This document shows, piece after piece, positions 25,888 to 26,200 of a stretch of 64,000 nucleotides of DNA (position 1 is the stretch's first letter; each line of letters begins with the position of its first letter). A program made the position numbers and the translations under genes. The stretch lies in the NCBI RefSeq assembly GCF_048403405.1, contig NZ_CP183129.1; one strand, 5' to 3'. The notes under the pieces were generated by a model. The model did not search any database, was not told where the DNA came from, and saw nothing but the letters and a program-made list of their open reading frames with translations. Source of the DNA: Escherichia coli. Its GTDB lineage: Bacteria > Pseudomonadota > Gammaproteobacteria > Enterobacterales > Enterobacteriaceae.

Positions 25888-26200
25888 TTGGGGCCATTTT
25901 GACTCATAGAGGAAAGCATCGCGCACAAACTTTTTCAGTTTATTTGTTGGCTTAATATTCTATTGTTATCTTTATTTATAGATTTTTATATTGCATGAGG
26001 TGGTTTTTGGAGAGAAGAATGAGGAAGATGCGTCGAGCCACAGAAACGTTAGCTTTACATTTGGCGGAGGTGATGTGAAATTAATTTACAAGAGAAATAA
26101 TTTACATATCAAACAGTTAGATGCTTTTTATCGTTTTTTAATATTTTTATGCTTGAGAAAAAATACGTAACTTATTTATGATATGGACAGTTTGGCCCCA
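25888..26200. promoter_or_regulatory. fimS: fimS invertible phase-variation switch (~313 bp) carrying the fimA promoter
   Basis: 9-bp inverted repeats TTGGGGCCA at ~25888-25896 and TGGCCCCAA at ~26192-26200. Inside, a sigma70-like promoter TTGAGA-17 nt-TATGAT(A) (~26153-26182) reads rightward on the + strand, toward fimE and away from fimA. Confidence 0.85.

Follow-up and report, generated by a model that had tools for sequence, protein, structure and literature searches.

The region at positions 25888 to 26201 of the analysed stretch is the canonical Escherichia coli fim switch, fimS, assembled in phase OFF, a reading that we hold at a probability of about 97%. The stretch, referred to here as the window, is 64,000 nucleotides of E. 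coli DNA (NCBI RefSeq assembly GCF_048403405.1, contig NZ_CP183129.1). The element aligns collinearly with its K-12 counterpart, and in-silico versions of two published assays for orientation both call it OFF. It is a textbook fim switch, in the state that assemblies record by default, and as such is already known.

Anatomy of the element and its gene context

The 9-mer TTGGGGCCA is present in exactly two copies in the 64-kb window, which are in inverted orientation and enclose a span of 314 bp. The initial annotation had recognised 9-bp inverted repeats as the boundaries of the element, which is borne out, and had placed the end of the element at 26200; the true end is 26201. A repeat search shows that imperfect inverted-repeat arms reach 22 nt when the flanks are included. 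According to the ORF map and the RefSeq annotation of MS 69-1, the element has fimE on one side and fimA on the other and precedes the fimAICDFGH operon. The element, its repeats and the genes around it are as follows.

25888-26201, no strand: fimS invertible element in phase-OFF orientation, from the TTGGGGCCA repeats, the gap-free MG1655 alignment and the in-silico BstUI and orientation-PCR assays
25888-25896, plus strand: 9-bp inverted repeat closest to fimA, IRR by the fimE-to-fimA convention of the literature; an exact TTGGGGCCA, with the 22-nt imperfect extension into the flanking recombinase half-site region
26193-26201, minus strand: 9-bp inverted repeat closest to fimE, IRL; an exact TTGGGGCCA
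25214-25768, minus strand: fimA, major type 1 pilin and first gene of the switch-controlled fimAICDFGH; 184-aa ORF, named fimA in MS 69-1
26249-26845, minus strand: fimE, tyrosine recombinase acting from ON to OFF; 198-aa ORF, aligned to K-12 FimE, fimE in MS 69-1
27323-27925, minus strand: fimB, tyrosine recombinase acting in both directions; 200-aa ORF, 100% identical to K-12 FimB, fimB in MS 69-1
23848-24573, minus strand: fimC of the fim operon, from the ORF map and MS 69-1 names
21146-23782, minus strand: fimD of the fim operon, from the ORF map and MS 69-1 names

The remainder of the operon (fimI, fimC, fimD, fimF, fimG and fimH) is also on the minus strand and extends to 19168. FimE aligns to the K-12 protein with no visible difference. 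The fimA allele encodes 184 amino acids, compared with 182 in K-12 MG1655. The 35-nt small RNA FimR2, annotated between fimA and fimI, is found at 25169-25203 on the minus strand and is unchanged from the MG1655 copy (b4838). A search of 24000-29500 against Rfam at gathering thresholds returned no RNA families, and ARAGORN, run over the full 64 kb, detected no tRNA.

Two of the sequence signals are weak when taken alone. Of 100 shuffled sequences, 15 contained the 9-mer two or more times, and a scan for sigma-70-like promoters showed no enrichment, as it gave 3 sites where shuffled sequences gave 2.1 +/- 1.7. The element is accepted as real because of its gap-free, collinear alignment with MG1655 and its location between fimE and fimA, and not because of the 9-mer or the promoter scan. 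In this alignment a 651-nt region was compared with the fimE-fimS-fimA region of MG1655, giving a mean column identity of 97% with no gap inside the element.

One integration host factor (IHF) site has been described within fimS (PMC9993118, PMC11316696), and the site IHF-1 adjoins IRL (PMC9993118). Both of the expected positions are filled in the window by motif matches, one internal and one beside IRL.

26107-26119, plus strand: IHF consensus match inside the element, at the position of IHF site II; TATCAAACAGTTA fits WATCAANNNNTTR
26234-26246, plus strand: IHF consensus match just outside IRL, at the position of IHF site I; TATCAATGAGTTA fits WATCAANNNNTTR

Orientation in the window and among complete genomes

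Three sigma-70-like sites are found in 25700-26350, the best of which matches 10 of the 12 consensus positions.

26153-26182, plus strand: fimA promoter-like TTGAGA-N18-TATGAT, adjoining IRL and reading toward fimE; 10/12 consensus, the best of the region

This site lies 11 nt from IRL and is directed away from fimA. The initial annotation had given the same site, strand and direction with a spacer of 17 nt, which is in fact 18 nt, and it had correctly placed fimA on the minus strand, on the side opposite to the direction of the promoter. The two hexamers are presumed to be those of the fimA promoter reportedly mapped by Olsen and Klemm 1994. Inversion of the element in silico moves the site to 25936->25907 on the minus strand, where the -10 hexamer ends 139 nt upstream of the fimA ATG.

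Orientation was tested with two published assays, neither of which needs the promoter to be identified. The first is a PCR with primers OL4 and OL20 followed by digestion with BstUI, in which phase OFF gives fragments of 539+187 bp and phase ON gives 433+293 bp (PMC9993118). The primers map at 25734 and 26460 in the window, and the assay depends on a single restriction site.

25920-25923, no strand: sole BstUI site (CGCG) of the switch-orientation assay of PMC9993118, near the fimA-proximal repeat as found

The predicted fragments are 539+188 bp as found and 434+293 bp when 25888-26201 is flipped, and MG1655 gives 540+188 bp in the same test. The second assay pairs a primer internal to fimS either with a primer downstream of fimA, where a product of 884 bp indicates OFF, or with a fimE primer, where a product of 394 bp indicates ON (PMC11968103). 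The OFF pair (primers 1 and 2) converges in the window, with a product spanning 25035-25924 (890 bp), and on MG1655 it gives exactly the published 884 bp; the two sizes differ because the fimA allele of the window is 6 bp longer. The ON pair (primers 1 and 3) lies on the same strand in the window and yields no product. On the flipped window primers 1 and 3 give 412 bp, a size calculated by hand from the primer positions, compared with the published 394 bp. This mismatch is treated as a discrepancy in the arithmetic or figure of PMC11968103 and not as counter-evidence, because the OFF size is exact in MG1655. The as-found orientation is thus phase OFF by both published assays, in agreement with the MG1655 alignment and with the orientation called by the initial annotation, and nothing in the results speaks against this call. 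That annotation had proposed an orientation PCR or restriction assay as a check, and the in-silico versions (539+188 bp and a converging OFF pair) give the answer it anticipated.

Orientation was also examined across 5,426 complete E. coli genomes, which were searched with 150-nt queries across each repeat, as found and flipped.

fimA-side junction: as found (OFF) in 4,463 genomes, flipped (ON) in 247 genomes
fimE-side junction: as found (OFF) in 4,460 genomes, flipped (ON) in 247 genomes

Among complete assemblies that bear the switch about 95% are therefore OFF and about 5% ON, and the MG1655 reference is among the OFF assemblies. Both orientations exist across genomes, with junctions exact at the repeats. 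Six genomes share 100% identity with the window across 10 kb and match it in a single piece, so that all six are OFF. The orientation of most E. coli genomes has been called OFF, and at least one assembly was set to OFF by hand (PMC5477200). An assembly chimera was considered as an explanation for the window and rejected, as both junctions are collinear with thousands of genomes.

Comparison with reference sequences, another check that had been proposed, agrees with the assays: the fimS of MG1655 has the same orientation, and the natural ON genome C4 (NZ_CP010121.1) carries the reverse complement of the element, identical at 314/316 positions and with the same flanks. The TTGAGA/TATGAT site of C4 is directed toward fimA, opposite to its direction in the window. 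From one outer repeat end to the other the C4 element spans 316 bp (671-986 of the fetched C4 locus), compared with 314 bp in the window; the extra 2 bp may reflect a true allelic difference or assembly errors in homopolymers.

The junction queries also show that the switch is not universal. About 708 of the 5,426 complete genomes had no match whatever, and some others matched partly, as in NT1N28, where just 39 nt of the fimA-side flank was found. Roughly 13% of complete genomes thus lack the switch or have it in disrupted form.

Two other readings of the as-found orientation were weighed. One reverses the assignment, so that the window would be in phase ON and the true fimA promoter would lie elsewhere in the element, which is also the outcome that the initial annotation had named as one that would overturn its call. 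A candidate for such a promoter is TTGATA-N18-TAAATT at 26112->26083, which matches 9/12 consensus positions, is the sole minus-strand match and faces fimA from inside fimS in the OFF orientation. This match is weaker than the plus-strand site and no more than chance would be expected to yield in so AT-rich a region; it overlaps the internal IHF consensus site. Both published assays are calibrated against fimA expression and call OFF, MG1655 is oriented alike, and PMC5477200 calls most E. coli genomes OFF. The OL4/OL20-BstUI and PMC11968103 PCR results refute the phase-ON assignment, to which we attach a negligible probability.

The other reading accepts phase OFF and supposes that the switch is genetically locked in this state in the strain, and is not merely resting there. 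Locked switches have precedents in the 16-bp fimS deletion of O157:H7 and in strains with a broken fimB. In the window there is a handful of substitutions relative to K-12, some of them inside the element, the A-run outside IRL is 1 bp shorter, and all six of the genomes identical over 10 kb are also OFF. Six of six is nevertheless expected by chance where about 95% of assemblies are OFF (0.95^6 is ~0.73). The element is of full length, 314 bp and gap-free against K-12, the 9-bp repeats are both exact, FimB and FimE do not differ from their K-12 counterparts, and the IHF consensus sites and promoter hexamers are unchanged. Nothing in the sequence suggests a locked switch, and we regard it as very improbable. 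A switch resting in phase OFF is the preferred reading, and with its recombinases and repeats intact the strain should be able to switch.

The assembled orientation is a snapshot of the majority cells of the culture, or a choice of the assembler or curator, and it says little about the ability of the strain to make type 1 pili. The view of the initial annotation that the OFF state affects the interpretation of type 1 piliation is therefore overstated, given that about 95% of switch-bearing assemblies are OFF and that recombinases and repeats are intact here. Annotation pipelines leave the switch and its state unmarked. The counts of 4,460-4,463 OFF and 247 ON among 5,426 complete genomes provide a useful baseline when an ON assembly is met.

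Other loci in the window

The window is nearly identical to the corresponding locus of MS 69-1. Over window positions 1-46664, which is the extent of the fetched locus, the two differ by 3 mismatches, besides one IS2. This insertion (~1.33 kb) is present in MS 69-1 only, at 39850-41180 of its locus, corresponding to about 39843-39849 in the window, where the BLAST pieces overlap by 7 nt. A 1,746-aa ORF at 2004-7244 on the plus strand is annotated in MS 69-1 as the inverse autotransporter IatD. This large gene of adhesin type and the fim operon are about 12 kb apart.

An island of mobile-element and defence type is found between nanS and a BREX locus, at 32272-47000 in the window and 32184-47518 in the MS 69-1 locus. 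In the MS 69-1 annotation its genes include an HNH endonuclease, a truncated phosphorothioated-DNA restriction endonuclease and an AbiEii/AbiGii toxin with a DUF6088 partner. These are joined by a CbtA/YeeU toxin-antitoxin pair, RadC, DUF932 and YagK/YfjJ, and by a frameshifted GTPase, a WYL-domain protein and a GIY-YIG nuclease.

The BREX locus is a complete type 1 BREX anti-phage system at 48092-63007 on the minus strand, in which all genes are full-length matches to PADLOC models.

62387-63007, minus strand: BrxA (PADLOC)
61788-62390, minus strand: BrxB (PADLOC)
58161-61775, minus strand: BrxC (PADLOC)
54459-58112, minus strand: PglX (PADLOC)
50178-52775, minus strand: PglZ (PADLOC)
48092-50167, minus strand: BrxL (PADLOC)

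Two added genes lie between pglX and pglZ, at 53338-54459 (373 aa) and 52775-53344 (189 aa). Their PADLOC matches are to the candidate system HEC-01A/B, which consists of an AbiL/AriA-like ATPase and a small partner. On the strength of these matches the pair looks like a second defence module embedded within BREX.

Mechanism of switching and comparison with known systems

Inversion of fimS is carried out by two tyrosine recombinases, FimB and FimE, which bind to half-sites on either side of the 9-bp repeats. FimB is bidirectional, FimE acts almost only from ON to OFF and is dominant, so that most cells are unpiliated, and the recombination complex is shaped by IHF, with sites beside IRL and internal, and by Lrp (PMC11316696, PMC9993118, PMC9096935). 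In the strain studied here, FimB and FimE would invert the 314-bp segment by site-specific recombination within the 9-bp repeats, and would be expected to go on doing so. One end of the segment is predicted to carry the fimA promoter. As assembled, the promoter end adjoins fimE and would fire toward fimE, which would leave fimAICDFGH with no promoter and the cell in the unpiliated phase-OFF state. Because FimE strongly drives switching from ON to OFF, ordinary cultures would be mostly OFF and a consensus assembly would normally be OFF as well.

Orientation also bears on fimE itself. A Rho-dependent terminator in fimS acts on the fimE mRNA according to the orientation of the element (PMC9993118, citing Joyce and Dorman 2002 and Hinde et al. 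2005). A candidate for this terminator is present in the window.

25999-26078, minus strand: C-rich, G-poor stretch, candidate Rho-utilisation region of the detachable fimE terminator; its 80 nt include 29 C and 9 G

On the fimE-sense strand this stretch is C-rich only as found, and is G-rich once the element is flipped. Its composition fits the published detachable terminator, and we infer the placement of the terminator on these bases. In phase OFF the fimE transcript would enter the C-rich, G-poor part of fimS, and Rho-dependent termination would then lower the output of FimE.

A more elaborate regulatory scheme can be imagined, in which transcription from the predicted fimA promoter in phase OFF passes IRL and enters the 3' end of fimE. 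The antisense RNA so made would tune FimE output together with the C-rich terminator region, and the few substitutions that set fimS of this lineage apart from K-12 would shift the ON/OFF bias. What the sequence offers for antisense tuning is the geometry of the promoter and fimE, and we consider the scheme a long shot.

The closest known system is the fim switch of K-12 MG1655 (NC_000913.3, fimE b4313 and fimA b4314). The two have in common the length of 314 bp, the 9-bp repeats and the OFF orientation, and in addition the promoter hexamers, the IHF consensus sites, the flanking genes and the FimB and FimE proteins. They differ by a few substitutions in and around the element, which leave the repeats and promoter hexamers untouched, and by the A-run between fimE and IRL, which is one A shorter in the window.

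Similar switches are found at other loci and in other bacteria, including Klebsiella fimS with FimB/FimE, ipuS and hyxS of uropathogenic E. coli (UPEC), and the invertible promoters of Bacteroides. These resemble the fim switch in that a short segment bearing a promoter and flanked by inverted repeats is flipped by a tyrosine recombinase encoded nearby (PMC6083910, PMC8748976). They involve other loci, repeats and target operons, whereas the element in the window belongs to the fim locus proper.
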